64,000 nucleotides of DNA from assembly GCA_963828255.1 (NCBI GenBank), contig CAWHDZ010000017.1:145150-209149 (forward strand), read 5' to 3'. The translations under genes and the position numbers were made by a program. This document shows, piece after piece, positions 5,233-57,764 of this stretch. This DNA comes from an uncultured delta proteobacterium (GTDB lineage: Bacteria; Myxococcota; Myxococcia; Myxococcales; Anaeromyxobacteraceae). The notes beneath the pieces are model-generated. The model saw nothing but the letters and a program-made list of their open reading frames with translations, searched no databases and had not been told where the DNA came from. Positions within the stretch are counted from its first letter, which is position 1; each line of letters starts with the position of its first letter.

Positions 5233-5241
5233 GTCGTCCTC

Positions 5242-5796: not shown

Positions 5797-5798
5797 GA

Positions 5799-7376: not shown

Positions 7377-7378
7377 GG

Positions 7379-8629: not shown

Positions 8630-8630
8630 C

Positions 8631-9296: not shown

Positions 9297-10042
9297 CGCG
9301 ACACCCCGCCGATGGTCCGCGGCCCCGGCGCGACGGGCTGGCGCACGCCCGGGTTGGCGACGCCGGGCAGCCGGGTGTTCTGCGCCGGGCTGGCCAGGTT
9401 GGGCGGAATGTCCGGGTCCGGGCCTCGGGCCCCGCCGGCGGCCTTGGGGTGCAGGACCACCCAGAAGGTGGAGAGTTCGAAGCCGTTCTCGGTCTTCCCG
9501 TCCTTCCAGCTCACCCGCAGCGACACCCTGCGGACCCCGTTCTTGATCTCCTCGGTGAAGGCCTTGATCTGCCCCTGCAGGACCCCGCCCAGCAGGCCGC
9601 CCGGCGTGCCCGCCGACGGCCCTCCCTTGGAACCGCCACCGCCACCGCCCTCGCCGCCCAGGAGCTTGCCGAGCATCTCCTGGGTGCCCACGTCTCCGTC
9701 GCCCCCGCCCAGGAACGCGCCCAGGATCTTCTCGGGGGTGAGGTCGGAGGCGGGCTTCTTCAATTCGAGCTTCCAGCGCATGCCGGGCTCACCCTGGTCC
9801 GAGAAGCTGCCCTCCTCGGACTGGTCGAAGTCGGTGAAGCCGGCGTCCTCGTACTTCTCCTCCATCTCGGCCATCTTGCCGCGGGCGAGCAGGGTGGCCA
9901 CGGAGAGGTCGCGCGCGTAGCCGAAGTTCCGCAGCGCGTTGCCCGAGAGGTCGGCCACCGCCATGAGCGAGCCGGCCAGCACGACGAGCGCCACCATGAC
10001 CTCGAGCAGCGTGAAGCCACGCCCCTGCACGACGCGCCTCAC
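9293..10042 (-). CDS. gspI: Type II secretion minor pseudopilin I
   Basis: RGFTLLEVMVAL motif; GTG start overlaps gspH stop. Confidence 0.85.
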   Translation of the reverse strand: MRRVVQGRGFTLLEVMVALVVLAGSLMAVADLSGNALRNFGYARDLSVATLLARGKMAEMEEKYEDAGFTDFDQSEEGSFSDQGEPGMRWKLELKKPASDLTPEKILGAFLGGGDGDVGTQEMLGKLLGGEGGGGGGSKGGPSAGTPGGLLGGVLQGQIKAFTEEIKNGVRRVSLRVSWKDGKTENGFELSTFWVVLHPKAAGGARGPDPDIPPNLASPAQNTRLPGVANPGVRQPVAPGPRTIGGVSR

Positions 10043-10674
10043 CGCGGCACCTCGGGGATGCCCGGCACCACCCGGGCGCGGCCGGTGAGCGGCTGGGTCA
10101 CCACGGTGTAGACGTTGCCGCCGTCGGACACCGGGATCTGGGCGCGGTCGGCCTGGCCCTGCGGGTAGAAGTAGACGTAGGCCTTTCCCTTGGTCTGGGG
10201 GTCGCGGTTGCGGGGCGTCCAGACCTTCTCGAACGCGGTGCTCCCCTTGAGCTTCCGCTTCTGGACCTGCCGGTCCTTGAACTCGGCGAACCGGGCGCGG
10301 GCCAGGAACTTCCGCTTCTCGGGGTCGACCTCGTCGGAGAAGCCGCGGGCCAGCTCCTTCTCGTCGTCCTCGGCGACGCCGTCCTTGCCCATGACCGGCT
10401 GGCCCCGCCGCCCGGGCGAGGCCGTGGTGCACTCGGCCCACCACTCCCGGGCGTCCATGTCGAGGACCATCCGGCAGGTCTGGTGGCGCAGCGCCGCCGT
10501 GTCGAAGAGGTAGCGGAAGGCGCCGGCGATCTCGCTGGCTGCGGCGCGGGCGTTGGCCCCGGTGAGCGAGCTCACGGCGGGCCCGGCGGCCAGCGCCATG
10601 ACGCCGATCACGGCCACCACGATGAGGACCTCGATGAGGGTGAACCCCCTCGGCTGGCGCGCCTCGCCGCTCAT
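10039..10674 (-). CDS. gspH: Type II secretion minor pseudopilin H
   Basis: RGFTLIEVLIVV motif; C-terminal YFYPQG; follows gspG. Confidence 0.85.
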   Translation of the reverse strand: MSGEARQPRGFTLIEVLIVVAVIGVMALAAGPAVSSLTGANARAAASEIAGAFRYLFDTAALRHQTCRMVLDMDAREWWAECTTASPGRRGQPVMGKDGVAEDDEKELARGFSDEVDPEKRKFLARARFAEFKDRQVQKRKLKGSTAFEKVWTPRNRDPQTKGKAYVYFYPQGQADRAQIPVSDGGNVYTVVTQPLTGRARVVPGIPEVPR

Positions 10675-10693
10675 CGTCTCCGGGATCCACGCC

Positions 10694-11098
10694 TCAGGGG
10701 TTGACGATGTCGGCGTTGGTGCCGTCGCCGCCGGCCTGCGCGTCGCCGCCGTAGGACTTGATGTCGAAGGACTCGGGGTGGACCTGCCCGGGGAAGAGGT
10801 ACACGTAAGGATTGCCCCAGGGATCCTTGAGCTGGGGCTTGCACTTCCCGGCCGTCACCACCGCCTGGAGCCCCTCCTCGGTGTTGGGGTAGCGCCCCTT
10901 GTCGATCTTGTAGAGATCGAGGCAGTTCTCCAGCGTGTGCAGGTCGGTCTTGGCCTGCTTGACCTTGGCCTCGTCGAGCTGGCCCACCACGTTCACCGCC
11001 ACCGCGGCCGCGATGATCCCGAGGATGGTGATGACCACCAGGATCTCGATGAGGGTCATGCCGCGCGACGCGGCGCGGGCGCTTCGGGGAGCTCTCAC
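10694..11098 (-). CDS. gspG: Type II secretion major pseudopilin G
   Basis: RGMTLIEIL, YPNTEEGLQA, KDPWGNPYVY and SYGGD motifs. Confidence 0.95.
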   Translation of the reverse strand: MRAPRSARAASRGMTLIEILVVITILGIIAAAVAVNVVGQLDEAKVKQAKTDLHTLENCLDLYKIDKGRYPNTEEGLQAVVTAGKCKPQLKDPWGNPYVYLFPGQVHPESFDIKSYGGDAQAGGDGTNADIVNP

Positions 11099-11100
11099 GT

Positions 11101-12327
11101 TCAGCCTCCTGCGATGGTGTTGATCTGGAGAATGGGCATCAGGATGGAGAAGACGATGAAGGCCACGGCCACGCCCATGACCACGATCATGATGGGCTCG
11201 AGCAGCGAGGTGAGCGCGGCGATCTTGGTCTCCACCTGGCTGTCGTAGGCGTTGGCGACGTTCCCGAGCATGTCCTCGAGCTCGCCCGACTTCTCGCCGA
11301 TGGCGATCATGTGGTACACCAATGGTGGAAACTCGCCGGAGCGCTTGAGCGGCGCGGCGATGCTCTCGCCCTCCTTGATCGACTCGCGGGCCTCCTCGAT
11401 GACCGCGGCCAGGCGGGTGTTCCCCACGATGTTCCGCACGATGTCGAGCGCGGTGAGCAGGGGCACCCCGCTCTTCAGCAGCGTGGCCAGCGTGCGGGAG
11501 AAGCGCGCCACCGCCACCTGGCGTATCAGGGATCCGAAGATGGGGGCGTCGAGGACCCAGATGTCCCAGCGCGCCCGGCCCGCCTCGGTCCTGCGCCAGC
11601 GCACGAATCCGTAGATCCCGGCGGCCAGCAGCAGGATCACCGCCCACCACCAGTCGTGCATGAAGCTGGCGACGCCGAGGAGGATGCGGGTGGTCCAGGG
11701 CAGCACCACCTTGGTGTCCTCGAAGATCTTGGTGATCTTGGGGATGACCACCGTGAAGAGGATGCCCATCACCGCCGCGCCGATGATCACCATGGCGGCC
11801 GGGTAGGTGAGGGTGCCGAGGACCTTGGAGCGCAGACGGGCCTGGCTCTCCGTGAAGTCGGCGAGCCGGAAGAGCACCACGTCGAGGGCGCCGGAGGACT
11901 CGCCGGCCCGGATCATGTTCACGTAGAGGTTGCTGAAGGCCTTGGGGTGCTGCCCCAGCGCGTCGGCCAGCGAGGACCCCTCGTTGACCCGCTGCTTCAC
12001 CGCGGAGAGCACCCGCTTCAGCCGCTCGTGGTCCACCTGCTCCACCAGCGCGGTGAGCGCGTCGACGAGCGGGATGCCGGCGTTCACCAGGACCGCCAGC
12101 TGCCGGGTGGCCACCGCCACGTCGTCGGCCTTGACCCGTCCGCCCACCCAGCGCCGGACGTTCACCTCGGGGGAGGCGGCCTTGGCCGCCTTCTCGCCGG
12201 TCACCTCGGTGAGGTAGAGCCCGTCGCGGCGGAGCGCCCCGCGCAGGGACCTGGGAGAGTCGGCCTCCTTGAGCCCCTCGACGTTCTTTCCGCGCTGGTC
12301 GAGCGCCTTGTATGCGAAGACGGGCAT
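11101..12327 (-). CDS. gspF: Type II secretion inner membrane platform protein F
   Basis: MPVFAYKALD start, two T2SSF domains (AGESSGAL, IGEKSGEL), LLEP motif. Confidence 0.96.
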   Translation of the reverse strand: MPVFAYKALDQRGKNVEGLKEADSPRSLRGALRRDGLYLTEVTGEKAAKAASPEVNVRRWVGGRVKADDVAVATRQLAVLVNAGIPLVDALTALVEQVDHERLKRVLSAVKQRVNEGSSLADALGQHPKAFSNLYVNMIRAGESSGALDVVLFRLADFTESQARLRSKVLGTLTYPAAMVIIGAAVMGILFTVVIPKITKIFEDTKVVLPWTTRILLGVASFMHDWWWAVILLLAAGIYGFVRWRRTEAGRARWDIWVLDAPIFGSLIRQVAVARFSRTLATLLKSGVPLLTALDIVRNIVGNTRLAAVIEEARESIKEGESIAAPLKRSGEFPPLVYHMIAIGEKSGELEDMLGNVANAYDSQVETKIAALTSLLEPIMIVVMGVAVAFIVFSILMPILQINTIAGG

Positions 12328-12336
12328 GGCCGGCCG

Positions 12337-14130
<1,794 letters not shown>

Positions 14131-14151
14131 GTCGGTCGGTGGCGGGGTCGC

Positions 14152-17100
14152 CTAGCCGCCGCCCGGCGGCGGGGCGGTGGGTGCCGGCGCGGGCGTGGCC
14201 GGCTCGGCGCCCGGAATGGGCAGCATCGTGCCCTGGGTGGGTGGGAAGGTGCGCGGCTGCGCTTCGGCGGGGGTCGGTGCCGGGGCTGGCGCCGGTGCTG
14301 CGGCAGGCGCGGCCGGCGGGCTCGCCGGCAGAGGCCCGGTCGGGACCGCGGACGGAGCGATGGTGCGCCCCGGCGTCGCGGAGGCGCCCGGCGAAGGCAA
14401 CGGAATGGGAGGGATCGCCGGACCGTAGCTCGGTGGCGGCTTGACCGTCTTCTCGCCGAAGCCGCCCGGACCTCCGTTCTCGATCTTCGCGCTCTCCGTG
14501 ACCACCTGCTGCCGGACGCGGGTGAGCGGACCGGGGCGGCTGGAGGCCTCCGCGAGCGTGTAGTCGGGCTTCTTGCCGTAGTAGAGCTCGTAGAGCTCGC
14601 GGTGCTCCCGCTGCTTGCGCTCCAGGATCCGCCGGAAGTCGGACTGGTCCCGGATGATGTAGGGGGTGAGCAGGAGGAGAAGGTTCGTCTTCTTCTTCAC
14701 GATGTTGGTGCTGCGGAACGCCCAGCCCAGGATGGGGATGTCGCCGAGCAACGGGATCTTCGACACCGAGGTGACGTTCCGGTCCTGGACCAGGCCGCCG
14801 ATCACGATGGTGCTCTGGTCCTTCACCACCACCTTGGTCTTCACGCTGCGCTTCGCCGTCGTGGGGCCGAGCGTCGGGTTGTTGGCGACGATCTCCTCCT
14901 GCGACTCCTCGATGTCCATGCGCACCATGTCGCCCTCGTGGATCTGCGGCTTGATCTTGAGCTTGAGGTCGACGTTCTGGCGCTGGATGGGGGCGATGAG
15001 GCTGGCCACGTTGTAGTTGTTGAGCAGGCTGTTGGTGGCGCCGGCCGCCCCCGTGGCCCCGGCGGTGCTGAACCCGGGGTTGTAGCCGGCCTGGAAGGGC
15101 ACGTTGTTGCCGACGATGATCTCCGACTCCTCGTTGTCCTGGGCGATGAGGTGCGGCGTGGAGAGCACGTTCACGTCGGAGTTGGACTGCAGCGCCTGGA
15201 TGACCACGCCCACGCTCGGGAACGGGAAGATGTCCTTCAGCTCGGCCGAGACCGGGCCCACGAGGCCGGTGAGGAACCCGCCCAGCTGGAGGGCCGAGGT
15301 CGGGTTGAGGGAGTTGATCTTCCCGGGCTCGAGGCCGATGGGGATGAAGCCCTTCCCGTTGGCGGTGTTGACCGGGACGGCGAGGTGCATGCCGACGCCG
15401 ATGTCGCTCGTGTTGTCGATGTCCACCTCCATGATCACCGCCTCCACGAAGACCTGGCGGCGCGGGCGGTCGAGCTTGTCGATGAGCCGCTGCACCACCG
15501 CGAAGTCGGAGGCGCTGGCGATGATCACGAGCGAGTTGGAAGGCTTGTCGGCCGTGACCTTCACGTCCCCGCTGAAGAGCTCGGCGGTGCCGCCGCCGCC
15601 GGCCGCCCGCGGCGCGGTGACGCCCGGTGGCGAGACCATCCCGGCGCCGGGCGGGGCGCCGGCCGTCGAGCCGGAGCGGCGCGAGCCGCTGGCCAGGTTC
15701 TGCAGCGTGTTGGACAGGTCCTCGGCGTTGGCGTTCTTCAGGAAGATGACGTGGATCGACCCCTCGCCGGCGGTGGGCGTGTCGAGCTGCCGGACCAGCT
15801 CGACGATGCGCTGGAAGCTCTTCTCGTCGGAGATGACGATGAGCTTGTTGGTGCGCTCGTCGGCCACCACCTTGCTGATGGAGATCTCCCCCGCCTCGGC
15901 CCCCGCGCCGGCCGGCGCTGCACCCGGAGCCGCCCCCGGTGCGGCCACGCCGCCGATGACCGCCCGGCGGGTGCCCTTGCCCGGCTGCCCGGGCGCCTGG
16001 ACGAAGATCTGGTTCACCTTGTCGGCCACGTCGCGCGCCGGGGCGTACTGGACCTGGATGACCCGCACCAGGTCGTGGGAGCCGGGTCGGTCGAGGGCCT
16101 CGAGCAGCTTCTCGATGCGCCGGACGTTCAGCCCGATGTCGGTGACGAGGAGGATGTCGGGGGGAATGGTCTGGATGTCGGCGCCCTGGGGCGAGGTGAA
16201 GTTTCCGAGGACGGCCCGCAACTGGTCGGGGTCCACGTAGCGGAGCCGGAAGAGCTTGGTCACCGACTGCTCCAGGGCGGGGATCTCACCGTCCTCGCTG
16301 AGCAGGGTGGGAATGGGCACCTTCTTGGCGTCGGCGATGCGGACGAGCTTCCAGTACTTGCCCGTCTGGTACATGGCGATGCCGTTGGTGTTGAGCGCGG
16401 CCAGGAAGGCCGCGTAGGCCTCCTCGGCCGTGACCGGCGTCTTGGAGAGCAGGGTGATCTTCCCGCGGACGACCTCATCGGTGTAGGCGAAGTTGCGGCA
16501 AGTCCAGCGGCTGGCCTGCTCGAGGAGGTCGAGGATCTCCGCCTTGTTGAAGGCGAGGAGGAACTTGCCCTCCATCGGCTCGCAGGCGCCGGAGGAGCGG
16601 GCCGATCCGCCCGCCTGGCCGGCGGGGACGACGTCGGCGCGGGCGGGGCTGCTGTCCGGGCGCGAGGGGGCCGCCTGCTGCACGCCCGGGGCGACGCTCT
16701 CACCCGGGGCGACGCTCTCACCCGGGGGGGGCGCGACCCCGGAGGGAGGAGACGCGAAGGCACTGCCCGCCGAGGAAGCTGCGCCCCCCTGGCCGTCGGA
16801 GGCGGGAGACGTACCTGCCGACCCGGGATCAGCTTCGGTGGCGGTCTCGGCGCCGGGAGTGGGAGCGGGAGCGCGAGCCGGAGCGGCGGTGCGCCCCGGC
16901 CTTGTCATCGGGACGCCGGCCTTCATTCCAGCAGGCGTGCGGCGGATTGCCCCTGGTCGGGGAGCCGGCGCGTTGCTGGTCCCCGTGGCGTACGGGGGGA
17001 CGGCCGGCGGTGCCCGGGGCGGCACGCTGGGCGACTCTTCAGGTAAATCCTGCGCCCCAGCCAGCGCGGACACGAGTAGGGCGGCGAGAAGCGAGCGCAT
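14152..17100 (-). CDS. gspD: Type II secretion secretin D with long Pro/Ala-rich terminal extensions
   Basis: Signal peptide, N domains, QVFVEAVIMEV, KIPLLGDIPILGWAFR secretin signature. Confidence 0.95.
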   Translation of the reverse strand: MRSLLAALLVSALAGAQDLPEESPSVPPRAPPAVPPYATGTSNAPAPRPGAIRRTPAGMKAGVPMTRPGRTAAPARAPAPTPGAETATEADPGSAGTSPASDGQGGAASSAGSAFASPPSGVAPPPGESVAPGESVAPGVQQAAPSRPDSSPARADVVPAGQAGGSARSSGACEPMEGKFLLAFNKAEILDLLEQASRWTCRNFAYTDEVVRGKITLLSKTPVTAEEAYAAFLAALNTNGIAMYQTGKYWKLVRIADAKKVPIPTLLSEDGEIPALEQSVTKLFRLRYVDPDQLRAVLGNFTSPQGADIQTIPPDILLVTDIGLNVRRIEKLLEALDRPGSHDLVRVIQVQYAPARDVADKVNQIFVQAPGQPGKGTRRAVIGGVAAPGAAPGAAPAGAGAEAGEISISKVVADERTNKLIVISDEKSFQRIVELVRQLDTPTAGEGSIHVIFLKNANAEDLSNTLQNLASGSRRSGSTAGAPPGAGMVSPPGVTAPRAAGGGGTAELFSGDVKVTADKPSNSLVIIASASDFAVVQRLIDKLDRPRRQVFVEAVIMEVDIDNTSDIGVGMHLAVPVNTANGKGFIPIGLEPGKINSLNPTSALQLGGFLTGLVGPVSAELKDIFPFPSVGVVIQALQSNSDVNVLSTPHLIAQDNEESEIIVGNNVPFQAGYNPGFSTAGATGAAGATNSLLNNYNVASLIAPIQRQNVDLKLKIKPQIHEGDMVRMDIEESQEEIVANNPTLGPTTAKRSVKTKVVVKDQSTIVIGGLVQDRNVTSVSKIPLLGDIPILGWAFRSTNIVKKKTNLLLLLTPYIIRDQSDFRRILERKQREHRELYELYYGKKPDYTLAEASSRPGPLTRVRQQVVTESAKIENGGPGGFGEKTVKPPPSYGPAIPPIPLPSPGASATPGRTIAPSAVPTGPLPASPPAAPAAAPAPAPAPTPAEAQPRTFPPTQGTMLPIPGAEPATPAPAPTAPPPGGG
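16685..16720. repeat. 18-bp tandem duplication in gspD (encodes PGESVA twice)
   Basis: cccggggcgacgctctca occurs twice in tandem. Confidence 0.85.
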
Positions 17101-17118
17101 GTGTTCCCCTCGCACCGG

Positions 17119-18105
17119 CTACGGGCCGGTGACGTTGTACTCCTTGCGGATGGTCTGGCCGTTGCGCTCGAGGTCGATCGTGACGTGCCGCGCCTCGCGC
17201 AGCTTCTGGTAGATCTCGAGCGCCTTGTCCGGCGAGTTGATCTCGTAGCCGTTGACCTTCTGGACCACGTCGCCGTTCTCCACCCCGATCGCGGAGTAGA
17301 AGGAGTTGGGCTGGATCGAGAAGACCTTGAACCCGTTGGCCACGCCGTTCTTGAAGCTCGGGACGATGCGCGCCTGGGTGGCCACGGAGTTCAGGTTGGA
17401 GAGCGTCCCGTCGAGGACCGACTTCTTCACGTCGTACTTGTTGTCGGCGACCTTGCGGATGCCGTCGGGCGTCATGGCCGATGCGCCGGCGTTGGGAGGC
17501 GGGACGGGGACGACGCCCACGTTCGGCGCCGAGACGGCGACGGCCGCCCCGCCGCCGCCGGTGTCGAAGCCGATGAACTCCTTGCGCCCGTCGTGGCAGA
17601 CGATGGCGACCACCCGGAAGGCGCGCCCGCTGGTGTCCTGCTCGTCGCGGATCCGCTCCACGGACAGGACCCGCGACCCCTGCACCTCGTCGCCGACCCC
17701 GTAGGTCCGGGTCTGACCGCTCGACTTGTCCATGATCACGGCAACCGACCGGAGGGGCCTGTCGGAGACGATCCCGGCCACGAGCTGGGCGCGCAGGGAC
17801 GTGGCGACCGGCGCCGCGAGGAGGTCGGAGCAGGTCTTCGGAGGCGGGGGAGCGGCGGCAGCGGTACCGGCCACGACCACCGGCGGGGGCTTCTGGCCGA
17901 TGAGCGGGAACAGCTTGTCCACGTCGAGGTTGGCGAACGGGGTGGCGGGCGCCGATGCCTGCCCGCCGCTGGTCTCCACCCGCGGTGTCGGGCGGATCGC
18001 GGCCCCCACGGCCGTGTTGACCGTCTTCGCGAGCAGCCAGGCGGCCGCCGCGAGCAGCACCAGGTTGGCCACCCAGCCGTACTTCTTCAGAAAGACTTCG
18101 AGCAT
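17119..18105 (-). CDS. gspC: Type II secretion system protein C with C-terminal PDZ domain
   Basis: N-terminal TM, HR domain, PDZ (GFKVFSIQPNS...GDVVQKVNG). Confidence 0.92.
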   Translation of the reverse strand: MLEVFLKKYGWVANLVLLAAAAWLLAKTVNTAVGAAIRPTPRVETSGGQASAPATPFANLDVDKLFPLIGQKPPPVVVAGTAAAAPPPPKTCSDLLAAPVATSLRAQLVAGIVSDRPLRSVAVIMDKSSGQTRTYGVGDEVQGSRVLSVERIRDEQDTSGRAFRVVAIVCHDGRKEFIGFDTGGGGAAVAVSAPNVGVVPVPPPNAGASAMTPDGIRKVADNKYDVKKSVLDGTLSNLNSVATQARIVPSFKNGVANGFKVFSIQPNSFYSAIGVENGDVVQKVNGYEINSPDKALEIYQKLREARHVTIDLERNGQTIRKEYNVTGP

Positions 18106-34436: not shown

Positions 34437-36449
34437 TCACTCGCAGAAGGCCGCTCGTCCCACCGGTCGCACCTCGAGGTCGGGCGGCAACTCATCGTAG
34501 GCCAGCACCGCAAGCCCTGGAAATCGCTGCGCGACGAGTTCGCGAAGCGGCCTGCGGACGTCTCCCGGAGCGAGCAGGGCCCGCGCACGCGGCGCCGCCG
34601 CGAGCGCAGATTCCACGGATGCGAGCAGCGCCCGGACGCCGTCCGGTCCGGGCGACCGCGCGCCGCCGTGGATCGCGTCGCGGAAGGTGAGCTCTGCGGC
34701 AGGGTCGAGGAGCAGCGCCTCGAGCGCGCGCCCCCGCAGCAGCGGCTGTGCGATGTGGCGGCAGAGCGACCTCCGACAGGCGTCGCAGAGGGCCGGCGCC
34801 GCCGCCCCGGAAGGCGCCGCGAGCAGGGCCTCCAGGATGGGGCGCAAGGGGCGGATCGAGACCTCCTCCTCGAGGAGCCGTCGCAGCACCTCGGCTATCA
34901 CCACGGGTGAAACATGCCGCGCCACCTCGCGGACCAGCGCCGGGGAGGAGGGCTCGAGCCCGTCGAGCAGGGCCTGCACCTCCTGGACGCCGAGGAGCAG
35001 GTGGGCCGCCCTGCGGAGCGCCGCGTGGGCCTCGGCGAGCGCCCGGTCGCCCGGGTCGAGCACCGGGCCGAGCGCCCCGGCGCGAACCGCGCTCTCCGAC
35101 GCGACGACCGACGCCTCGGCCCCGGTGAGCGGGTGGCGCGCCTGCGCCGCCGGGATCCCGGCCAGTCGAAGCTCGTCCGCCGGCGCCAGGCAGAGCGACC
35201 AGCCGGCCGCCACCTGCCCCTTGGCGGCCGGGGCTCCGTCCACGAGGAGGCGCCAGGCTCCCGGGCCGGAGCGGCCCGCCCGGACGGTGATCCGGCCCGC
35301 CGGAACGCCCATGGAGGTCCAGAGGTCGCGCCGCAGCGCCGCCGCGGCCTCCCCGAGCCAGGCCGAGGTGACCTCCCGGCCGGCCAGGAGGTCGGGGGCG
35401 ATCTCGACCGCGACCGCGTCGGCCGGCGCCAGGTCGCGCGTGCGGCTCCCCTCGACCGCCGGTGCGGCCCCGGCCTCGGGGCCGCGGCGCATGGCCCGGA
35501 TCCCGGTCCACGAGAGCGCCGCGCCGAGGACCAGGAACGGGGCCGCCGGAAACCCCGGCGCGAGCCCCAGGGCGGTGAGGAGTGCGCCGGCGGCGACGAG
35601 CGCGCGCGGTTCCGCCAGGAGCTCGCTCGCGACGCGGGAGGAGACGCTCCGCTCGTCGCCGGCCACCCGGGTGACCGCGATCCCAGCGGCGATGGCGAGG
35701 AGGAGGGAGGGGACCTGCGAGGCCAGGCCGTCCCCGACGGCGAGAAGCAGGTAGCGGCGCGCCGCGGCGCCGGCCGTCATGCCCTTCACGAGGCCGGCCA
35801 CGAGCCCCCCCACCGCGTTCACGAGCGCAATGGCGATGCCCGCCACCGCGTCCCCCTTCACGAACTTGAGCGCGCCGTCCATCGCGCCGTGAAGCTGGCT
35901 CTCCCGCTCCAGCTCCCGGCGTCGCCGGCCGGCCTCGGCGCCGTCGATGGCCCCGGCGCGCAGCTCGGCGTCGATGGCCATCTGCTTGCCGGGCAGGGCG
36001 TCGAGGGTGAAGCGCGCCGCCACCTCGGCCACCCGTTCCGCCCCCCTGGAGACCACGAGGAGCTGGACCAGCGCCAGGATGGCGTAGACCACCGCCCCGG
36101 CCACCCAGCTGCCCTGCATCACCACGCGGCCCAGGGCCTCGATGACCCGGCCGGCCTCGCCCCGGGACAGGACGAGCCGCGTGGAGGCCACCGCCACCGA
36201 GAGCCGCAGGAGCGTGGTGAGCAGGAGGATCGCCGGGAAGGCGGAGAGGCGCATGGCGTCGGGGGCGAGCAGCGTGGCGAGGAGCACGACGGCCGAGATC
36301 CCCAGGCTCGCCGCGACGAGGGCGTCGACCACCGACGGGCCCACCGGCACGAAGAGCAGCCCCACCAGCGCCACCACGGCGAGCCCCGGCGCGAGTTCGG
36401 CCGCCGAGGTGAGCCGGGCCCACCCCCGCCCGGCGTCGCCGGCGCTCAC
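34437..36449 (-). CDS. Type III export gate protein SctV/FlhA family (divergent)
   Basis: FPAILLLTTLLRL, RVAEVAARFTLDALPGKQMAIDAEL, GAMDGALKFVKGD, GDGLASQVP, VLRRLLEEEVSIRPL. Confidence 0.92.
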   Translation of the reverse strand: MSAGDAGRGWARLTSAAELAPGLAVVALVGLLFVPVGPSVVDALVAASLGISAVVLLATLLAPDAMRLSAFPAILLLTTLLRLSVAVASTRLVLSRGEAGRVIEALGRVVMQGSWVAGAVVYAILALVQLLVVSRGAERVAEVAARFTLDALPGKQMAIDAELRAGAIDGAEAGRRRRELERESQLHGAMDGALKFVKGDAVAGIAIALVNAVGGLVAGLVKGMTAGAAARRYLLLAVGDGLASQVPSLLLAIAAGIAVTRVAGDERSVSSRVASELLAEPRALVAAGALLTALGLAPGFPAAPFLVLGAALSWTGIRAMRRGPEAGAAPAVEGSRTRDLAPADAVAVEIAPDLLAGREVTSAWLGEAAAALRRDLWTSMGVPAGRITVRAGRSGPGAWRLLVDGAPAAKGQVAAGWSLCLAPADELRLAGIPAAQARHPLTGAEASVVASESAVRAGALGPVLDPGDRALAEAHAALRRAAHLLLGVQEVQALLDGLEPSSPALVREVARHVSPVVIAEVLRRLLEEEVSIRPLRPILEALLAAPSGAAAPALCDACRRSLCRHIAQPLLRGRALEALLLDPAAELTFRDAIHGGARSPGPDGVRALLASVESALAAAPRARALLAPGDVRRPLRELVAQRFPGLAVLAYDELPPDLEVRPVGRAAFCE

Positions 36450-37480
36450 GTCCGATCTCCGGACTGGAGCCCGTGGACGTGGGCCAGGACCGCCGCCGTG
36501 GCCTCGTAGAGCTCCTCCGGGATGGCCTCCCCGACGTCGGCCAGCCGGAAGAGGGCCCGCGCAAGGGCCCGGTCCTGGACCACCGGGATGCCCATCCGCC
36601 GGGCCTCGCGGCGCAGCGCCACCGCCCGGGCGCCCGAGCCCTTTCCGAGGACCACCGGTGGGTCGTCCCCACCGCGGCGGTGCGCCAGCGCGACGGCGAG
36701 CCGCGTGGGGTTCACCACCAGGCAAGTGGGCCGTCCCGGCGCGCCGGCCAGGGAGGCGTGGAGGCGCCGGCGCTCGGAGCGGTGGCGTGGGTCCCCCTCG
36801 TCCTCGCGCTGGTCGCGCTCCAGCTCCGGCCGGGTCATGCGCAGGCCCCGGAGGTGGCGGCGCCGCCGCAGGAGGAGGTCGGCGAGGCCGGCAGCGGCGA
36901 GGAGCGCCAGGATCGGGGGGAGCGTGGAGCCGACGGCCCAGGCGGCCTCGGCCCATGCCGCCCCGGGACGCATCCGCGGCACCTGCGACAGGAGCGGGAC
37001 CCGGTCGGCGAGGAGCCGCACCCCAAGCGCGACGGCAGACCCGGCGACGAGGAAGGCGAAGGCCGCCTGTCCCGGGCCAGCGGAGGAGAGGAGGCGCCGC
37101 ATCCCCGCGCCCGGATCGACGCGGTCCCAGCGCGGGCGAAGCGCGTCCGGCGCGAGGAGGCCGCCGGTCTGGACCACGCCGGCGATCATGGCCCCCGCGC
37201 AGGCCGCCAGGGCCGGTGGCGCGCAGAGGCGCGCCACCCGCAGGAGTGCGGCCAGCGCGAGCTCCGGCGGGACGGCCTCCGTCCCCGAGACGGCCGCCGA
37301 GAGCGCCGCCCGGAGCGCCGCCGCCTCGTCCGGGACCAGGGAAGGAGAGAGCACCGCGAGGGCGACGAGGCCCAGCGTGGTCGCGCCGAGCCCCACCAGC
37401 GCCCGGCTCACCGGGACCTCGCCTCGCCGGCGGGCCTCCCGGAGCCGGCGGGGAGAGGGAGGAAGGGATCGGCCGCTCAA
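36446..37480 (-). CDS. Export switch protein SctU/FlhB family, NPTR variant
   Basis: PSPRRLREARRRGEVPVS, RMTRPELERDQREDEGDP, VVNPTRLAVAL, IPEELYEATA; TTG start overlaps sctT stop. Confidence 0.9.
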   Translation of the reverse strand: MSGRSLPPSPRRLREARRRGEVPVSRALVGLGATTLGLVALAVLSPSLVPDEAAALRAALSAAVSGTEAVPPELALAALLRVARLCAPPALAACAGAMIAGVVQTGGLLAPDALRPRWDRVDPGAGMRRLLSSAGPGQAAFAFLVAGSAVALGVRLLADRVPLLSQVPRMRPGAAWAEAAWAVGSTLPPILALLAAAGLADLLLRRRRHLRGLRMTRPELERDQREDEGDPRHRSERRRLHASLAGAPGRPTCLVVNPTRLAVALAHRRGGDDPPVVLGKGSGARAVALRREARRMGIPVVQDRALARALFRLADVGEAIPEELYEATAAVLAHVHGLQSGDRT

Positions 37481-38271
37481 GGCGCTCCCCTCGCCATCCG
37501 CTCCACCATGCCCCCGGCGAGCGCGGCCAGCTCCACCAGACGCCCCCCGATGGCGGCCGCGGGAAGGGCCACGGCGGCGAGGCCGAGCGCGGCGCGGACC
37601 GGCGGCGCCGCGTCGAGCAGCGACGAGCGGGGCGCGAGGCGGGAGGAGGCGGAGAGCGCCAGGTCGGCGCAGAGCAGCGCCGCCGCCGCGGGCGCCCCCA
37701 GGCAGAGGGCGGCCGAGAGCAGGTCGGCGGCGGCCGAGGCCGCGGCCTCGAGGCGCAGGAGGCCGGGCAGCGCACCTCCCACCGGCACGGTGCGGAAGGT
37801 GTCGAGCAGCGCCGCCACCAGCAGGCGATCGGCCCCGGCCCAGGCCCCGAGCGCGACCGTCCACTGCGCGAGAAGGTCGCCCACCGCGGTCTCCCGCTGC
37901 CGGATCAGGGGCACGTGGAGTTCACCCAGGGTCGCGCCGCGGAGCGTGTCGACGAGCCGGCCGGCGCCCCGGGCCGCCTCGACCGGGAGGCTCGCCGCGA
38001 AGGCCAGCGCCGCGCCGAGCGCGAGCTCCGATGCCGCCACCGCGAGGAACGGCGCCCCGGGAGGGCTCCCGGCGCCCGTCGCAGACCGCACCGCCGCCCC
38101 GAGCGCGAGGGCCAGCCCGGCCCGGGCCACGGGCGGCAGGAGCGGCCCTCCCAGGAACGGGGAGAGCGCCACCACGGGCAGGAGGCGCAAGGAGCACGCT
38201 CCCACGTCGAGCGCGACACCGGCCACGGCCGGCAGGAGCGCGAGCGCGGCCGGTCCGGCGTCGTCGATCAC
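37477..38271 (-). CDS. Export apparatus protein SctT/FliR family
   Basis: RLLPVVALSPFLG, ELALG, AGRLVDTLRG; hydrophobic; operon position. Confidence 0.85.
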   Translation of the reverse strand: MIDDAGPAALALLPAVAGVALDVGACSLRLLPVVALSPFLGGPLLPPVARAGLALALGAAVRSATGAGSPPGAPFLAVAASELALGAALAFAASLPVEAARGAGRLVDTLRGATLGELHVPLIRQRETAVGDLLAQWTVALGAWAGADRLLVAALLDTFRTVPVGGALPGLLRLEAAASAAADLLSAALCLGAPAAAALLCADLALSASSRLAPRSSLLDAAPPVRAALGLAAVALPAAAIGGRLVELAALAGGMVERMARGAP

Positions 38272-38534
38272 GGCGCCGCCCGGAGCGAGGCCTCGATGCA
38301 GGCCTGGCCGAACCTGACCACCCGCGCGGCGGTCCAGGGCGCGGCGAGCCCGACCACAGTGAGGACGGCCACGAGCCGCGGGACGGCGCCGAGCGCGTGG
38401 TCCTGGATCTGGGTGACGGCCTGCAGCGCCCCGGTGAGGAGGCCTGCCACGAGCGCGGCGGCCAGCGCCGGAGCCGACACGGCCAGCGCGACCAGCAACG
38501 CCTCCCTGCCCGCGACGAGGATGGTCGGGTCCAC
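38268..38534 (-). CDS. Export apparatus protein SctS/FliQ family
   Basis: GLLTGALQAVTQIQDHALGAVPRL, 88 aa. Confidence 0.92.
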   Translation of the reverse strand: MDPTILVAGREALLVALAVSAPALAAALVAGLLTGALQAVTQIQDHALGAVPRLVAVLTVVGLAAPWTAARVVRFGQACIEASLRAAP

Positions 38535-38541
38535 GCGGTCC

Positions 38542-39219
38542 TCAGGGGAGGTAGCCGGAGGCCAGGCCCCGGGTGACGATCCCGAAGCCGTCCACGGCCA
38601 CGACGAGCAGGAGCTTGAAGGGTACGGCCACCGCCGACGGCGAGACCTGGGTGAGGCCGAGCGAGAGGAGCACGCTCGCCACGGCGAGGTCCACGACGAG
38701 GAAGGGGAGGAAGATCAGGAAGCCGACGGTGAAGGCGCGCCGCAGCTCCGAGACCACGAAGGCCGGGGCGAGCACGCCGAAGCCGTCGTCGTCCCCGTCG
38801 GCCCGGGGCGGGGGGGCCCCGCGGGCCCTGGCCGCGAGCAGGGCGAAGGCGCGACGGTCGCCCGGAGCGGCGAAGCGGGCCAGGAAGGCGCGCAGGGGCT
38901 CGGCGGCGCGCGCCCCGGCGGCGAGCGTCTCCTCCGGTCCGCGCGGTGCGGGGGGCTCCTGCCAGCGCGCCCAGGAGGCCGCGGCGACCGGCTGCATGAC
39001 GAGCAGGGTGACGAGCAGTGCCAGCCCGGTGACGGCGGCGTTGGGCGGCACTTGCGGCACCCCCAGCGCCGAGCGCAGGACCGAGAGGACCACCACCACC
39101 TTGAGGAAGCAGGTGAGCGTGACGAGCGCCAGCGGGGCCAGCGCCATGGCGCCGAGGAGGACCAGGAGCTCGAGCGGCCGCTCGCCGGGGAGCACCTGGG
39201 CCAGGGCCGGGGCGATCAC
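38542..39219 (-). CDS. Export apparatus protein SctR/FliP family
   Basis: FLKVVVVLSVLRSALGVPQVPPN, PAFVVSELRRAF, FLPFLVVDL, PFKLLL. Confidence 0.93.
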   Translation of the reverse strand: MIAPALAQVLPGERPLELLVLLGAMALAPLALVTLTCFLKVVVVLSVLRSALGVPQVPPNAAVTGLALLVTLLVMQPVAAASWARWQEPPAPRGPEETLAAGARAAEPLRAFLARFAAPGDRRAFALLAARARGAPPPRADGDDDGFGVLAPAFVVSELRRAFTVGFLIFLPFLVVDLAVASVLLSLGLTQVSPSAVAVPFKLLLVVAVDGFGIVTRGLASGYLP

Positions 39220-39458
39220 GGGGTGCGCTCCATCCGGACGCGGGCGACCAGGCGGACCCCGTCCCGCCCCCACCCGACGAGGAGGACCTCCCCCCGGGCG
39301 CGCACCAGCGCCACGCCCGCGTCCCGGGCGAGCAGCGCCCGGTCCTCGATCTCGAGGTCGCGCGGCGACGGGCGCCGGCCGAGGCGGCGTCGCGCCAGCA
39401 CCGCGCCGGCGGCGAGGAGCGCCACGACGGCCGCTGCGGCCACCGCGGAGGCGGTCAC
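39216..39458 (-). CDS. Small FliO-like membrane protein
   Basis: N-terminal TM then LEIEDRALL...VALVRARGEVLLVGWG beta pattern; lies between FliN-like and FliP-like genes. Confidence 0.65.
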   Translation of the reverse strand: MTASAVAAAAVVALLAAGAVLARRRLGRRPSPRDLEIEDRALLARDAGVALVRARGEVLLVGWGRDGVRLVARVRMERTP

Positions 39459-40696
39459 GGCCCCACCAGGAGCGAGGTGATCCGCACGCCCACCGCGCCG
39501 TCCACCTCGACCAGCTCGCCGCGGGCCACGCCGCGATCGCCGATGCGCAGCGTGACCTGGCCGCTCCGGTCGAGCCCGAGGGGCAGGACCGCCCCGGGAG
39601 CGATCCGGGCCAGGTCCCGGAGCGGCACCGCCACCGAGGCCAGCTCCACCTCGAGCAGCACCGGCGCGCCGCCGGCCCCGCCGGGACCCGGCACGTGCAC
39701 CTCATTCACCTCCAGTGAATCCCCGGCCACCCGCCCACGCGCGGCCAGGCCGCCCGGGAACCGGATCGCAGTGGACTCCCCGGGGGGGCCCTCGAGGAGG
39801 AGCACGTCCCCCTCGCGCAGGGCCTCGACCTCCCCGGGGTCGAGCTCCGTCCGGCCGCTCCGGACCGAGCCCCGGACCAGGACGTCCCGCAGGGGCAGGG
39901 GAACCCCGCCGTCCCGGGGAAGGGTGCGCAGCGCGGCCTCGGGGAGGAACAGGAAGGCGCGCCCCTTCGCTCCCGCCGCGGAAACGGTGAGCTCGATGCA
40001 GACGGGGCGCAGCGGCGCCCCCGCGCGCAGCGCCAGGCGCGGCGCCAGCGGCCCCTCGATCTCCGTCTCGGCGGCGAGTGCGTCGAGCGCGCCCAGGACG
40101 GCGAGCTCCACCACCGCGCGCTCCGCCGCCCCGAGCGACCCGGAAGTCCCGGAGCGCCCGGTCCCGCCCGCCACGCGCCCGGCCAGCCGGGCCGCGAAGC
40201 CGCGGTCCACGGCGAGGGAGGCGACCCCGGCCAGGGCCGTCAGCTCGATGGGGACGAGCGCGGCCCCTGCCGGCTCGGGGAGCCCGGGGAGGATGCGCCC
40301 GTGCAAGCTGGCCTCGCCGCCCAGCACGGAGGAGAGCCCGCGGGCGGCGGCGCGGGCGGCGCGCTCGCCCAGGTCGAGGAGCGAGGCGTCCAGCAGGGCG
40401 AGCGCCGGCGCGACGGGGGGGAGGTCGAAGGGGAGCACGTCTCCCGGCTCGAGCACGTGCCATGCCGGGGCCCCCTCGGCCCCGTCCCTCGCTCCGCACG
40501 TCCCGGGCCCGTCCGCTTCGCGCTCCGGCGGCCGAAGCGCGGACGCGAGCGCCGCCAGCCGGTCGGCGCGTGGTGCGGCGAGGAGCGCGCGGATCCTCTC
40601 CGGATCGACCCCGGGATGGCGTCCCAGGAGCGCCGCGGCCCGCGCAGGTGCGAGCGCGGCGGCGAGCACGACGAGCCCCCGGGCATCGGGGTTCAC
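39455..40696 (-). CDS. C-ring protein SctQ/FliM-FliN family (two SPOA domains)
   Basis: LREGDVLLL and VPLRDLARIAPGAVLPL...ARGELVEVDGAVGVRI SPOA motifs. Confidence 0.82.
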   Translation of the reverse strand: MNPDARGLVVLAAALAPARAAALLGRHPGVDPERIRALLAAPRADRLAALASALRPPEREADGPGTCGARDGAEGAPAWHVLEPGDVLPFDLPPVAPALALLDASLLDLGERAARAAARGLSSVLGGEASLHGRILPGLPEPAGAALVPIELTALAGVASLAVDRGFAARLAGRVAGGTGRSGTSGSLGAAERAVVELAVLGALDALAAETEIEGPLAPRLALRAGAPLRPVCIELTVSAAGAKGRAFLFLPEAALRTLPRDGGVPLPLRDVLVRGSVRSGRTELDPGEVEALREGDVLLLEGPPGESTAIRFPGGLAARGRVAGDSLEVNEVHVPGPGGAGGAPVLLEVELASVAVPLRDLARIAPGAVLPLGLDRSGQVTLRIGDRGVARGELVEVDGAVGVRITSLLVGP

Positions 40697-41412
40697 GGTC
40701 CGTCCGTCCTGCGCCGCCCCAGCACCAGGGCGAAGGCGCCCAGCACCGCCGCGAACGCGAGCATGGAGCCGGCCAGCCAGCCTCGCGAGACCCTCGGCTC
40801 CGCAGTCCGGGGAGCGGGGGAAGGCGCCGCCTCGCTCACCAGCACCGACACCGACGCAGGGTCGAGCCCCTCCGCCGCGCCGGCCACCATGCGGCGAAGC
40901 CCGTCGGACTGGGATTCCAGCCTTCCGCGCGCGTCGGGGCGGCACTTCACCAGGATCGATGCGCGCGGCGTCCGGCGCGCGTCCGGGCGGAGCGGGTCGG
41001 GAGGCGGCAGGGCCAGGTGGACGCGCGCCCCCAGGACGCCGTCGAGCGACTCGAGCGTCCGGGCCAGCTCGCCGGAGAGCGCGTGCAGGTACCGGGCCTG
41101 CTCCTCGAAGGGGGTGGGGACGAGACCGACGCTCCCGAAGAGCTCCGTGAAGCCCGGCGACCGCGGGCGCGGAAGGTCTCGCGCCGAGAGGACGCTGCGC
41201 GCCGCCGCCGCCTCGGACGGGCGCACCGCGACGGTGAAGGTCCCTTCCTCTCCCCCGTCCCGCTCCTTCCGTGCCGGGAGCCCGGCCTCGCCGAGTGCGA
41301 CGAGGACCTGGTTCGCCTGTGGCTCGTCGAGCCGGTGCAGGAGCACCTCGTCGCCGCAGGCGGCCAGGACGGGGAGCAGCGCGAGCGGCAGGAAGGGGCG
41401 GGGCACGGTCAC
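40693..41412 (-). CDS. Inner membrane ring lipoprotein SctJ (YscJ/PrgK family)
   Basis: Lipobox LAAC, LDEPQANQVL, GLVPTPFEEQARY, LESLDGVLGARVHL, C-terminal TM. Confidence 0.92.
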   Translation of the reverse strand: MTVPRPFLPLALLPVLAACGDEVLLHRLDEPQANQVLVALGEAGLPARKERDGGEEGTFTVAVRPSEAAAARSVLSARDLPRPRSPGFTELFGSVGLVPTPFEEQARYLHALSGELARTLESLDGVLGARVHLALPPPDPLRPDARRTPRASILVKCRPDARGRLESQSDGLRRMVAGAAEGLDPASVSVLVSEAAPSPAPRTAEPRVSRGWLAGSMLAFAAVLGAFALVLGRRRTDGP

Positions 41413-41792
41413 ACCTGGGCGTTCAGCGCCTGGCGCATCCCCTGGACTCCGTGCTCGACGGCCCGGGCGGCGAACTCGACCGTCTGTGCGAAGCGGTGCG
41501 CGTCGGCCTGGAGGCAGAGCAGTTCCTGGGGGCTGAAGGTGCGCCCGCGGCGGGCCTCCGAAAGCATCCCGTCGAGCCGGGCCCGGACCCCCTCGATGTC
41601 GCGCAGCGCCCCCGGCAGCGCCGGCGCGGGGGACGCCTCCTGGGCGGCGCGGGACGGGCCGGGCGCGGGAGCGCCTGCCGCGGGGATCGACGGGCCGGGC
41701 TCGAACATGCGCCGGAGCACGGCCACGGGAGGCCGGACCGCGGCCGGCGGCGCGGTGAGGTCCACGACGCGGATGGGGGCGGGGGAGTTCAC
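41409..41792 (-). CDS. Putative inner rod protein (SctI-like C-terminus)
   Basis: C-terminal SPQELLCLQ...VEFAARAVEHGVQGMRQALNAQV resembles the YscI/HrpB2 end; sits directly upstream of sctJ. Confidence 0.55.
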   Translation of the reverse strand: MNSPAPIRVVDLTAPPAAVRPPVAVLRRMFEPGPSIPAAGAPAPGPSRAAQEASPAPALPGALRDIEGVRARLDGMLSEARRGRTFSPQELLCLQADAHRFAQTVEFAARAVEHGVQGMRQALNAQV

Positions 41793-42247
41793 TGGACGTT
41801 CTGGATGGCGGCGCGTGCGGCGTCGTGACGGACCTTCATGATGTTGGACACCGCAGTGAACTCCCGGGTCTCCCGCTGCATCCTTTCCTGAAGCTCGAGG
41901 TAGCGGAGGTTGAAGCTCTGCCCCTCCGCCTGGAGCGCCCGCGCGGCCTCGAACCCGTCGGCTCCGCCCGCCGACGCCGAGGCGAGCGTGGTCGCCCCGG
42001 ACAGCCCGGACGTTCCGGACGTTCCGGACGAGGCCGGGCGCGCCGCCCCGGCGGCGGCCTGTGCCACGCCGCGGACCGCGCCGGCGAGCACCATCCCGGC
42101 GGGGGCGAGGGGGGCGAGGATTCCCGCCGCGGCGGCCAGCCCCTCCGCGGCGCCGGCGGCGGCCGCGCGCAGCGTGGCTCCGAAGGAGGAAGGGGCGGTC
42201 TTGCGATCCGCGGTGGGTGCGACGATGACCGAGGTGATGGGTTCCAT
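41789..42247 (-). CDS. Putative needle/filament subunit (SctF-like C-terminus)
   Basis: C-terminal LELQERMQ...AVSNIMKVRHDAARAAIQNVQ resembles PrgI AQSNTVKVFKDIDAAIIQNFR; GGAGG RBS. Confidence 0.55.
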   Translation of the reverse strand: MEPITSVIVAPTADRKTAPSSFGATLRAAAAGAAEGLAAAAGILAPLAPAGMVLAGAVRGVAQAAAGAARPASSGTSGTSGLSGATTLASASAGGADGFEAARALQAEGQSFNLRYLELQERMQRETREFTAVSNIMKVRHDAARAAIQNVQ

Positions 42248-42274
42248 GTGGACGACCTCCGGTCCGGTCCGGAG

Positions 42275-42290
42275 AGCACGCGACGTGCCG
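42275..42290 (-). promoter_or_regulatory. Putative sigma54 promoter of the T3SS-like operon
   Basis: Minus strand CGGCACGTCGCGTGCT has GG-N10-GC with a GGCAC core, about 28 nt before the first ATG. Confidence 0.55.
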
Positions 42291-56571: not shown

Positions 56572-56653
56572 GATTCGCCAATCAGCCAGGAATTTCGGGC
56601 CGCACGCGCGGGCCTGGCTTGTGCAGTGTTCGTGTCCTGATATGGAAACGGAC

Positions 56654-56914
56654 ATGGCCACGATCGTGCTGAAGGGGATTTCCGCGGAGTTGCACAGGCG
56701 GCTGGAACAGCGCGCCCGTGCGAGCGGGCGCAGCGTGAGCGGCGAGGTGATCGCCTGTCTCGAGTCGGTCGTCGGGCTGCCGGAACAGAGCACCGCCCAG
56801 GAGGAGAAGCTGCTGGCAGGGATCCGGAAGCTTCGCGAGGAGATCGCGGCGACGACCGGCCTTTCGGTCACGAACGAGCAGATCGACGCGGCCAAGCGGA
56901 AGGGACGCCCGTGA
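56654..56914 (+). CDS. Ribbon-helix-helix antitoxin (FitA/Arc-like)
   Basis: MATIVLKGISAELHRRLEQRARASGRSVSGEV; stop overlaps the PIN gene start. Confidence 0.85.
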   Translation: MATIVLKGISAELHRRLEQRARASGRSVSGEVIACLESVVGLPEQSTAQEEKLLAGIRKLREEIAATTGLSVTNEQIDAAKRKGRP

Positions 56915-57316
56915 TCGTGGTGGACACGAACGTCCTGGCGCGCCTGGTTCTCCCGGGCGTGGGCACTGCCCTCGCCGAAGCCGTTCATCGCCGCGACCCG
57001 GACTGGGTCGCGCCACCACTTCTCTACTCCGAGATCCGAAACGTCCTCGTGACGATGATCCGGCATGGTGAGCTCAGGAAGGAGCAGGCCCTCGCAGCGG
57101 CAACGGAGGCCGTGATCGTCATGAAGGGGGACCAGGTGCCGGCCGCCACGCCCGACGTCCTGGAGCTGGCGATGCGATCCGGCTGCACCGCCTACGACTG
57201 CGAGTTCGTCGCGGTCGCGAAGGACCTCGAGGCAACGCCTCGTCACGAGCGACCGGCAGGTTCTCGCGGCCTTCCCGGAGGTCGCGGTCTCCCCCGAGGC
57301 CTTCGTCGCGCATTGA
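56911..57316 (+). pseudogene. vapC: VapC/PIN toxin with a +1 frameshift near 57238 (true lesion or sequencing error)
   Basis: MIVVDTNV...SEIRN...TAYDCEFV in one frame; the canonical end LVTSDRQVLAAFPEVAVSPEAFVAH* is in the next frame. Confidence 0.8.
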
Positions 57317-57367
57317 ACGGGGATGGCCCCGTTTGCCGCCCCCGTCCCTGCGTGTTACATCCCCCTC

Positions 57368-57764
57368 GCCGGAGCCGTCCGGACGAACGCGTCGGAACTC
57401 GTGTCCGCCGAGGAAAGTCCGGGCACCACAGGGCAGGGTGCCGGTCAACGACCGGCCGGGGTGACCCGCGGGAAAGTGCCACAGAGAACAGACCGCCGAA
57501 CGGCGCCGCGAGGCGTGCGTGGCAAGGGTGAAACGGTGCGGTAAGAGCGCACCGCGTCCTGGGTAACCAGGGCGGCAAGGCAAACCCCACCCGGTGCAAG
57601 AGCAAATAGGGAGGCGTCTCCGTCGCAAGACGGGGTGTCGGGCGGCTCGCCCCAGCCTCCGGGTACGGCTCGCTAGAGACGCGCGGCAACGCACGTCCGA
57701 GAGGAATGTTCGTCACCGCCGGTTTTCCGGCGGGACAGGACCCGGCTTACAGGGCGGCTCCGGC
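57368..57764 (+). ncRNA. rnpB: RNase P RNA, bacterial class A
   Basis: GAGGAAAGTCCGGGC, GGGTGAAACGGTGCGGTAAGAGCGCACC, GGCAAACCCCAC, ACCCGGCTTAC; terminal P1 GCCGGAGCCG/CGGCTCCGGC. Confidence 0.96.

Follow-up and report, generated by a model that had tools for sequence, protein, structure and literature searches.

Two kinds of secretin-less type III secretion system (T3SS) loci, short and long, are described for the Myxococcales, and the accessible part of Abby & Rocha 2012 (PMC3459982) states that both are without the needle subunit SctF, its model placing the loss of SctF in the earliest-branching injectisome lineage. The long system, the prey-lysing T3SS*, is likewise said to have no needle homologue in the accessible text of PMC10433427 and PMC12075869, and excerpts of PMC10196010 give MXAN_5643-5654 as the T3SS(2) of Myxococcus xanthus. 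Here we analyzed a 64,000-nucleotide stretch of DNA (hereafter the window) from an uncultured delta proteobacterium of the Anaeromyxobacteraceae (assembly GCA_963828255.1, contig CAWHDZ010000017.1), which carries a ten-gene type III export operon. An original prediction, made from the letters alone, had described a minimal machine with needle-like and rod-like genes and with no ATPase, SctD or secretin. In itself, the operon is typical of the family already described. The needle-like gene at its head contradicts the published 'needleless' description, which the original prediction did not note and which is the most interesting point of this study. A SctF relative in these systems appears to be new; none was found in print for a Myxococcota T3SS by a search of openly accessible main texts.

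The published short locus is like the operon in SctRSTUV, SctJ, SctI, the ATPase and the gene order, is likewise without secretin, is described without SctD, for which the operon too has no ORF, and is present in Anaeromyxobacter-type genomes; its accessible description states SctF to be absent and leaves FliO unmentioned, whereas genes of both kinds are conserved here (PMC3459982). It also differs in that the ATPase genes here lie on another contig and that a SctK-like gene is fused to SctQ in this genus. We fetched 26 regions around the best-matching SctV genes of the same class, and their gene order was F-I-J-...-Q-O-R-S-T-U-V, with F and I genes in 25 of the 26 and the remaining region starting downstream of them. 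In a SctV tree of 26 proteins, comprising long loci and three FlhA and no canonical injectisome SctV, the window fell into one clade of 11 short loci from both families (SH-aLRT 97), apart from the long loci and FlhA, so that the nesting within a flagellar clade that had been named as a refuting outcome was not seen. One short-type locus of another order, represented by a half-length sequence, was placed outside this clade. The inspected loci share a chromosomal neighbourhood that we take to be rne-yihY-ihf, and 177 of the 201 phylum genomes matched the SctV/FlhA family (flagellar FlhA counted in, as is the unpublished genome G181). On these sequence grounds the operon is classed as a Myxococcota 'short' secretin-less type III locus and not as the prey-lysing 'long' T3SS*; we infer that its family corresponds to T3SS(2). 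The myxobacterial, secretin-less character that had been predicted holds; the link to prey killing in M. xanthus that had been cited belongs to T3SS*.

T3SS* (MXAN_2434-2464) has in common with the operon a secretin-less export apparatus, SctI, SctJ, a FliO-like gene and a SctF-like gene, the last found here, and differs in its SctV and SctN clades, with both the window SctV and the remote SctN of this genome outside the long clade, and in having its own ATPase and several SycD-like chaperones in the cluster. It also has SctD and works with a Tad/Kil pilus according to the accessible text of PMC10433427 and PMC12075869, whereas no TadB/TadC was found in this genome, in which the T2SSF domain occurred in two genes only. 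Canonical injectisomes share the F-I-J-K order and the C-terminal helix similarity (SPI-1/Mxi-Spa, prgI-prgJ-prgK-orgA), and the E-F-G-like order of Ysc/Asc (yscE-F-G) is mirrored in the long loci; unlike them, the genome of the operon is without SctC, with no SctD found and no recognised tip, translocon or effector. The flagellar export apparatus also has a FliO-like gene ahead of sctR (fliP), whereas the operon has SctJ and not FliF, its SctV and SctN lie outside the flagellar clades with no FlhA-clade gate, and no rod or hook gene was found in the genome (flagellin was not searched for).

The resemblance of the first gene to SctF emerged at the level of its family. The last ~55 residues of its product are strongly conserved, and a homologue with 52% identity is labelled Anaeromyxobacteraceae. 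Neither of the first two open reading frames (ORFs), F-like and I-like, matched a Pfam or NCBIfam family as a single sequence. When 24 family members of the first gene were scanned singly against Pfam, matches to HrpF (14), SrfA (10), T3SS_needle_F (8) and HrpA_pilin (7) were obtained, with best E values of 0.0015-0.022, all below cut-offs. In the ESM Atlas, the nearest named clusters of the first-gene domain carried T3SS_needle_F (0.87; 173 of 256 features), and the top cluster included an Acidobacteriota member. HHalign of 37 non-redundant family members against 7 canonical SctF sequences gave a score of 31.0 and a probability of 84%, with the alignment running to the last residue, compared with 9.7 +/- 2.1 (max 17.2) for 100 column shuffles, 6.9 for the reversed profile and 15.9 for the SctI-like rod family. 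The gene also has the SctF sequence pattern, a C-terminal helix ending at the C-terminus, and the SctF position, directly ahead of sctI-sctJ (F-I-J, as in Shigella mxiH-mxiI-mxiJ) or, in long loci, between E- and G-type genes. The first-gene profile matched 163 of the 201 phylum genomes (G181 in the tally). Against 1.84 billion representatives at 50% clustering it gave 2276 matches at E<=0.001, and the 150 matches listed were all close family members without annotation, with no bridge to canonical SctF among them. The published operational test, that no gene exceeds the SctF profile threshold, fits the operon, and sub-threshold similarity to SctF runs through the whole family. Taken together, the C-terminal helix is probably homologous to that of SctF, and we file the gene as SctF-related and not as a member of SctF; the protein may form a filament. 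The needle-like and rod-like labels given originally were borne out in this sense.

We also found a second homologue of the first gene in T3SS* genomes, at the head of the long cluster, between a ~90-aa E-like gene and a tetratricopeptide repeat (TPR) gene and upstream of sctI-sctJ. As a query against named genomes, the long-locus F protein, which is of low complexity, retrieved nothing; with its TPR neighbour as query, 80 named loci were fetched, of which 76 were true orthologues (one of the long-locus records is titled Myxococcus xanthus AM003). The order E-like, F-like, TPR was kept in 74 of the 76, the two misses being at contig edges, and it matches ascE-F-G and a Nitratidesulfovibrio locus. 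For two long-locus F-like proteins, SctF was the only Pfam and NCBIfam match (E 0.002-0.02). Other arrangements were also seen. One long locus (G136, L114:9820-10919) holds a tandem array of three identical 72-aa genes, the size of a canonical needle gene, flanked by SycD-like chaperones and with a weak full-length match to SctF (E 0.14), and another (L035 of G110) holds two identical 74-aa genes in the same region on the opposite strand. In G005 (L117:9281-10581), two tandem F-like genes with identical C-termini stand between the E-like and TPR genes. In some long-type loci (L124-L126, L128), an ORF that looks by eye like a sigma factor lies between the TPR gene and sctI.

The first-gene profile had a second match in the genome of the operon itself, a 306-aa protein on contig C21 (C21:137481-138401); a TPR protein of 148 aa, with LcrH/SycD as best model, is encoded after it. 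The C-terminus of this paralogue aligned with SctF in HHalign (33.0, 88%, including the P-D turn; maximum of 60 shuffles 15.2) and with the first-gene family at 99%, and the protein has a conserved hydrophobic segment at ~188-210; its AlphaFold model had a mean pLDDT of 49.9. The paralogue was present in 57 of the 60 family genomes, and in 29 of 30 loci the TPR gene adjoined it, with a contig end accounting for the exception. Both genomes of genus g6 are without the C21-type gene and without the rod gene, one event and weak support for a connection. The paralogue is likely a substrate of the machine encoded by the operon. We also observed that the SctF-like helix has 22 matches at E<=0.01 in G005 (loci L094-L112). 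About 20 of them are weak (E 1e-5 to 1e-2) and fall in long open frames, of 270-1170 aa, some of which lie close to TPR genes; they may represent a helix-carrying substrate family or be noise.

The two units carry the same type of promoter box. The GG-N10-GC promoter that had been predicted ahead of the operon is a sigma54-type (-24/-12) box fitting 9 of 11 positions of what we take to be the sigma54 consensus. All 13 same-family loci, the window included, scored 9-10 of 11 at 40-54 bases ahead of the start, compared with 1.5% of 2000 random 200-base genome stretches reaching at least 9. Outside the family, no class-level locus of the 12 examined scored 9 or more, the -24 half being kept at the same place by eye. 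C21-type loci had a box scoring at least 9 in 17 of 30 cases, several others being without a usable start. A scan of the genome gave 29 boxes, 11 of them ahead of a plausible gene, including the operon and the C21 paralogue gene. Two further ORFs preceded by a box are presumably glnA and nifH. In the accessible parts of PMC3459982 and PMC10196010, no description of the paralogue-chaperone pair or of the sigma54 box was found for the short locus.

Parts missing from the operon were sought in the genome (99.2% complete, 6.6% contamination, 40 contigs), which has a single SctV. No sctN, sctL, sctD, sctC, hook or flagellin gene lies inside the operon, as had been stated. The absence of an ATPase does not extend to the genome: a single FliI/SctN above cut-off, with SctN as best model, was found on contig C11 (C11:158615-159946), flanked by a SctL gene on one side and, on the other, by a helical ORF of 157 aa, which shares 4 bases with sctN and is SctO by position, with no family match. 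These sctL-sctN-sctO-like genes (C11:158145-161467) follow a 257-aa sigma70-family ORF that lies directly downstream of what we take to be rpoB-rpoC, and no strong sigma54 box (7/11) precedes sctL. In a distant genome the short-type locus is unbroken as F-I-J-K-L-N-Q-O-R-S, and two others read F-I-J-x-...-N. In a tree of 28 SctN/FliI proteins, the remote SctN grouped (86/92) with the in-locus SctN of the distant F-I-J-K-L-N locus and with ATPases of seven other short-locus genomes, one per genome. Long-locus SctN (100/99) and a clade presumed to be flagellar FliI (98/99) stood apart, and two other in-locus ATPases branched outside the group of the remote SctN without resolution. The simplest reading is that the L-N-O block moved out of the operon, and the remote genes likely power its machine, in line with the earlier suggestion that it might be completed by genes elsewhere. 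At the site of the L-N-O block of unsplit loci, between sctJ and sctQ, L010 and L021 carry insertions of 3-6 kb, with an HNH-like ORF (by eye) in that of L021.

With regard to the outer membrane, no T3SS secretin SctC was found in the 40 contigs, in which the secretins were two only, GspD and PilQ, each above its own cut-off. The predicted absence of a secretin thus stands for the operon and, as regards SctC, for the genome, and does not stand for the window, which holds the type II GspD. The latter belongs to a complete-looking type II secretion operon on the minus strand (4285-18105), ~17 kb from the T3SS operon, and PilQ is on the same contig outside the window (C17:115346). Either secretin might conceivably be borrowed as an outer-membrane pore by the exporter. 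As to SctD, the operon has no ORF for it and a genome search with TIGR02500 gave 0 matches, but this model matched no control genome either.

The ten ORFs are intact on the minus strand from 42247 down to 34437, in the predicted order (Table 1). They overlap by 4 nt at 8 of the 9 junctions, as had been reported, with a 7-nt gap between sctR and sctS. Since 4-nt overlaps also occur in the type II secretion operon of the window, they are weak evidence alone. Scans of the window ORFs with Pfam and NCBIfam assigned SctJ, SctQ, a FliO-like protein and SctR, S, T, U and V.

Table 1. Coordinates of the type III export operon, its promoter box and the type II secretin gene in the window.
Feature	Position	Strand	Remarks
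Sigma54-type (-24/-12) box, GG-N10-GC	42276..42290	-	43 nt ahead of the first start codon
SctF-related protein, 152 aa	41789..42247	-	Ala/Gly-rich N-terminal part with hydrophobic segment 37-55; conserved C-terminal helix 95-151
SctI-like inner rod, 127 aa	41409..41792	-	PF17001 matched by 18/24 family members, best E 5e-5
SctJ lipoprotein ring, 239 aa	40693..41412	-	LAAC lipobox, C-terminal hydrophobic segment; PF01514 E 1e-27; TIGR02544 top NCBIfam match
SctQ with N-terminal SctK-like fusion, 413 aa	39455..40696	-	PF01052, TIGR02551; FliMN_C domain C-terminal
FliO-like membrane protein, 80 aa	39216..39458	-	PF04347 E 2.6e-4, TIGR03500 E 4e-6
SctR, 225 aa	38542..39219	-	Family scans; NF009438 above cut-off
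SctS, 88 aa	38268..38534	-	Family scans
SctT, 264 aa	37477..38271	-	Family scans
SctU, 344 aa	36446..37480	-	TTG start; NPT cleavage motif visible; family scans
SctV, 670 aa	34437..36449	-	Sole FHIPEP gene found in genome; family scans
Type II secretion GspD secretin	14155-17100		Family scan

The 413-aa protein read originally as SctQ is a fusion: its C-terminal FliMN_C domain agrees with SctQ, whereas its first ~80 aa correspond to a gene of 88-117 aa that stands on its own after sctJ in the family's other genera. The fusion is also present in one same-genus locus inspected. SctK is a label by position only for the gene after sctJ, since 15 of 16 such proteins had no relevant Pfam match and one long-locus protein matched FliG_C; the K-like part of the fusion had no Pfam match. 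This long-locus gene (L117:4612-5628) matches both FliG_C and FliG_M, consistent with a derivation of SctK from FliG. The FliO-like gene scored 21.5 bits in Pfam against a cut-off of 22 and was kept in 24 of the 26 short-type regions and in both long-locus regions covering that place; its presence beside SctJ, to which attention had been drawn, is not peculiar to this locus. Elsewhere in the window (56642-57531), a small DNA-binding-like ORF and then a PIN-like ORF (by eye) form a probable toxin-antitoxin pair, where the G+C falls to ~67%.

From these data we favour, by a modest margin of confidence, a sigma54-induced exporter without SctD or secretin and with a remote ATPase, building a filament from SctI and the SctF-related protein that is capped by the chaperoned hydrophobic paralogue. 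A sigma54 activator would turn on the operon together with the two-gene unit on C21. SctR-S-T-U-V would assemble within a ring of SctJ only, with FliO helping SctR as it assists FliP in flagella, and the K-Q fusion would dock the remote SctL-N-O ATPase. SctI and then the SctF-like protein would be exported, the latter stacking via its C-terminal helices with the ~90-aa N-terminal extension outward, to give a short filament without a dedicated secretin. The C21 paralogue, held by its SycD-like TPR neighbour, would be exported later as tip or cap, and its hydrophobic segment may insert into the cell's own outer membrane, as a stand-in for the secretin, or into the membrane of a neighbouring cell. 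The biological purpose of the operon is probably not prey killing.

Several observations weigh against this scheme. The window's own first-gene protein had no HrpF, SrfA, T3SS_needle_F or HrpA_pilin match, and none of the SctF-like proteins tested reached the curated SctF cut-off, the best scoring 18.5 bits against 29.4 or 41.7, values that apply to full-length proteins. The ESM Atlas score of 0.87 is below 0.9 and a lead only, and the canonical SctF profile of 7 sequences is small. The first gene does not have the SctF format, its 152 aa being about twice the canonical length with one predicted helix, against a two-helix proline-turn hairpin of 60-90 aa; in the AlphaFold model, residues 95-151 form one straight confident helix in place of the SctF hairpin, and confidence is low for the N-terminal part. 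In a 14-member long-locus F set, T3SS_needle_F was matched by 3 and an unrelated helical family by 6. For the E-like gene, no similarity to AscE or to the equivalent Nitratidesulfovibrio protein could be detected. The long-locus TPR protein is similar to Nitratidesulfovibrio G (83%) and not to AscG, with TPR matches being generic, and the genome of the window contains neither an E-like gene nor a close orthologue of G. The SctN grouping has moderate support and long, compositionally biased branches. Since 2 of the 5 genomes examined with both loci have one SctN only, in the long locus, there must be short loci that share an ATPase or have none. Finally, in RNA data (one run, small word share) contig cover was flat over genes and spacers, so that an origin from DNA is possible.

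It is also conceivable, at clearly lower odds than the filament, that the machine is active and its first gene derived from SctF, with the product and the C21 paralogue being secreted membrane-inserting substrates and not conduit subunits. The Ala/Gly-rich hydrophobic segment in both proteins, the pairing of the C21 gene with a SycD/LcrH-like chaperone, the first-gene model without hairpin and the many long G005 proteins weakly matching the same motif would all suit such substrates. A fixed place ahead of sctI-sctJ and a conserved E-F-G-like order in long loci are nevertheless typical of structural genes, and the conserved part corresponds to the C-terminal helix that in SctF lines the needle lumen. 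We consider it rather unlikely that the exporter is truly needleless and crosses the inner membrane only, the resemblance to SctF being a convergent amphipathic helix. Profile searches in the accessible part of PMC3459982 found no SctF, SctF scores here were sub-threshold, and fold searches yielded generic coiled coils only (VIA-align wide, best Z 5.9); Foldseek gave 0 matches with the first-gene model, a single helix making both of these searches uninformative, and a PDB sequence search with the F-like and I-like profiles gave no meaningful match. Set against convergence are the agreement of three T3SS filament families, the ESM neighbours, the controlled HHalign and the gene position, and the SctI-like helix encoded by the following gene, which serves as a fair control and reached half the score against SctF.

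A decaying relic, or a displaced flagellar part, is very improbable and largely refuted. The FliO-like gene, the K-Q fusion, the long branches of the genus and dN/dS values somewhat above those of some neighbours speak for it. By Nei-Gojobori for one pair (the window genome and one same-genus genome), dN/dS was nevertheless 0.14-0.41 across the ten operon genes with no stops, and four genes nearby gave 0.12-0.33; purifying selection acts on all ten operon genes, and the maintained machine that had been postulated, with a value near 1 as its refutation, is upheld. The rod gene was found in 50 of the 60 family genomes, most misses being fragmented assemblies, SctV lies outside the FlhA clade, and the flagellar rod/hook domain Flg_bbr_C had no match in the genome while four control genomes matched.

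Returning to the filament-building exporter, we put forward more tentatively that Myxococcota type III systems never lost SctF, and that the short locus and T3SS* both build a secretin-free needle from an N-terminally extended subunit, with a hydrophobic tip paralogue breaching the outer membrane and, in T3SS*, E/G-type chaperones in addition. If true, these systems would embody, in living form, the pre-secretin needle that has been postulated for the transition from flagellum to injectisome, and T3SS* would own a conduit rather than borrow the Kil pilus. Current predation models rest on a needleless T3SS*, and the accessible text of PMC10433427 and PMC12075869 leaves the delivery of lytic cargo open. 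'Needleless' machines, including the prey-lysing one of Myxococcus, may build a filament. If the first gene encodes a needle subunit, the question of cargo delivery by T3SS* becomes testable and the needle-before-secretin ancestral state has a living model. The sigma54 box, together with the co-regulated pair of paralogue and chaperone, provides a first handle on what is exported by the short system, which is functionally uncharacterised.

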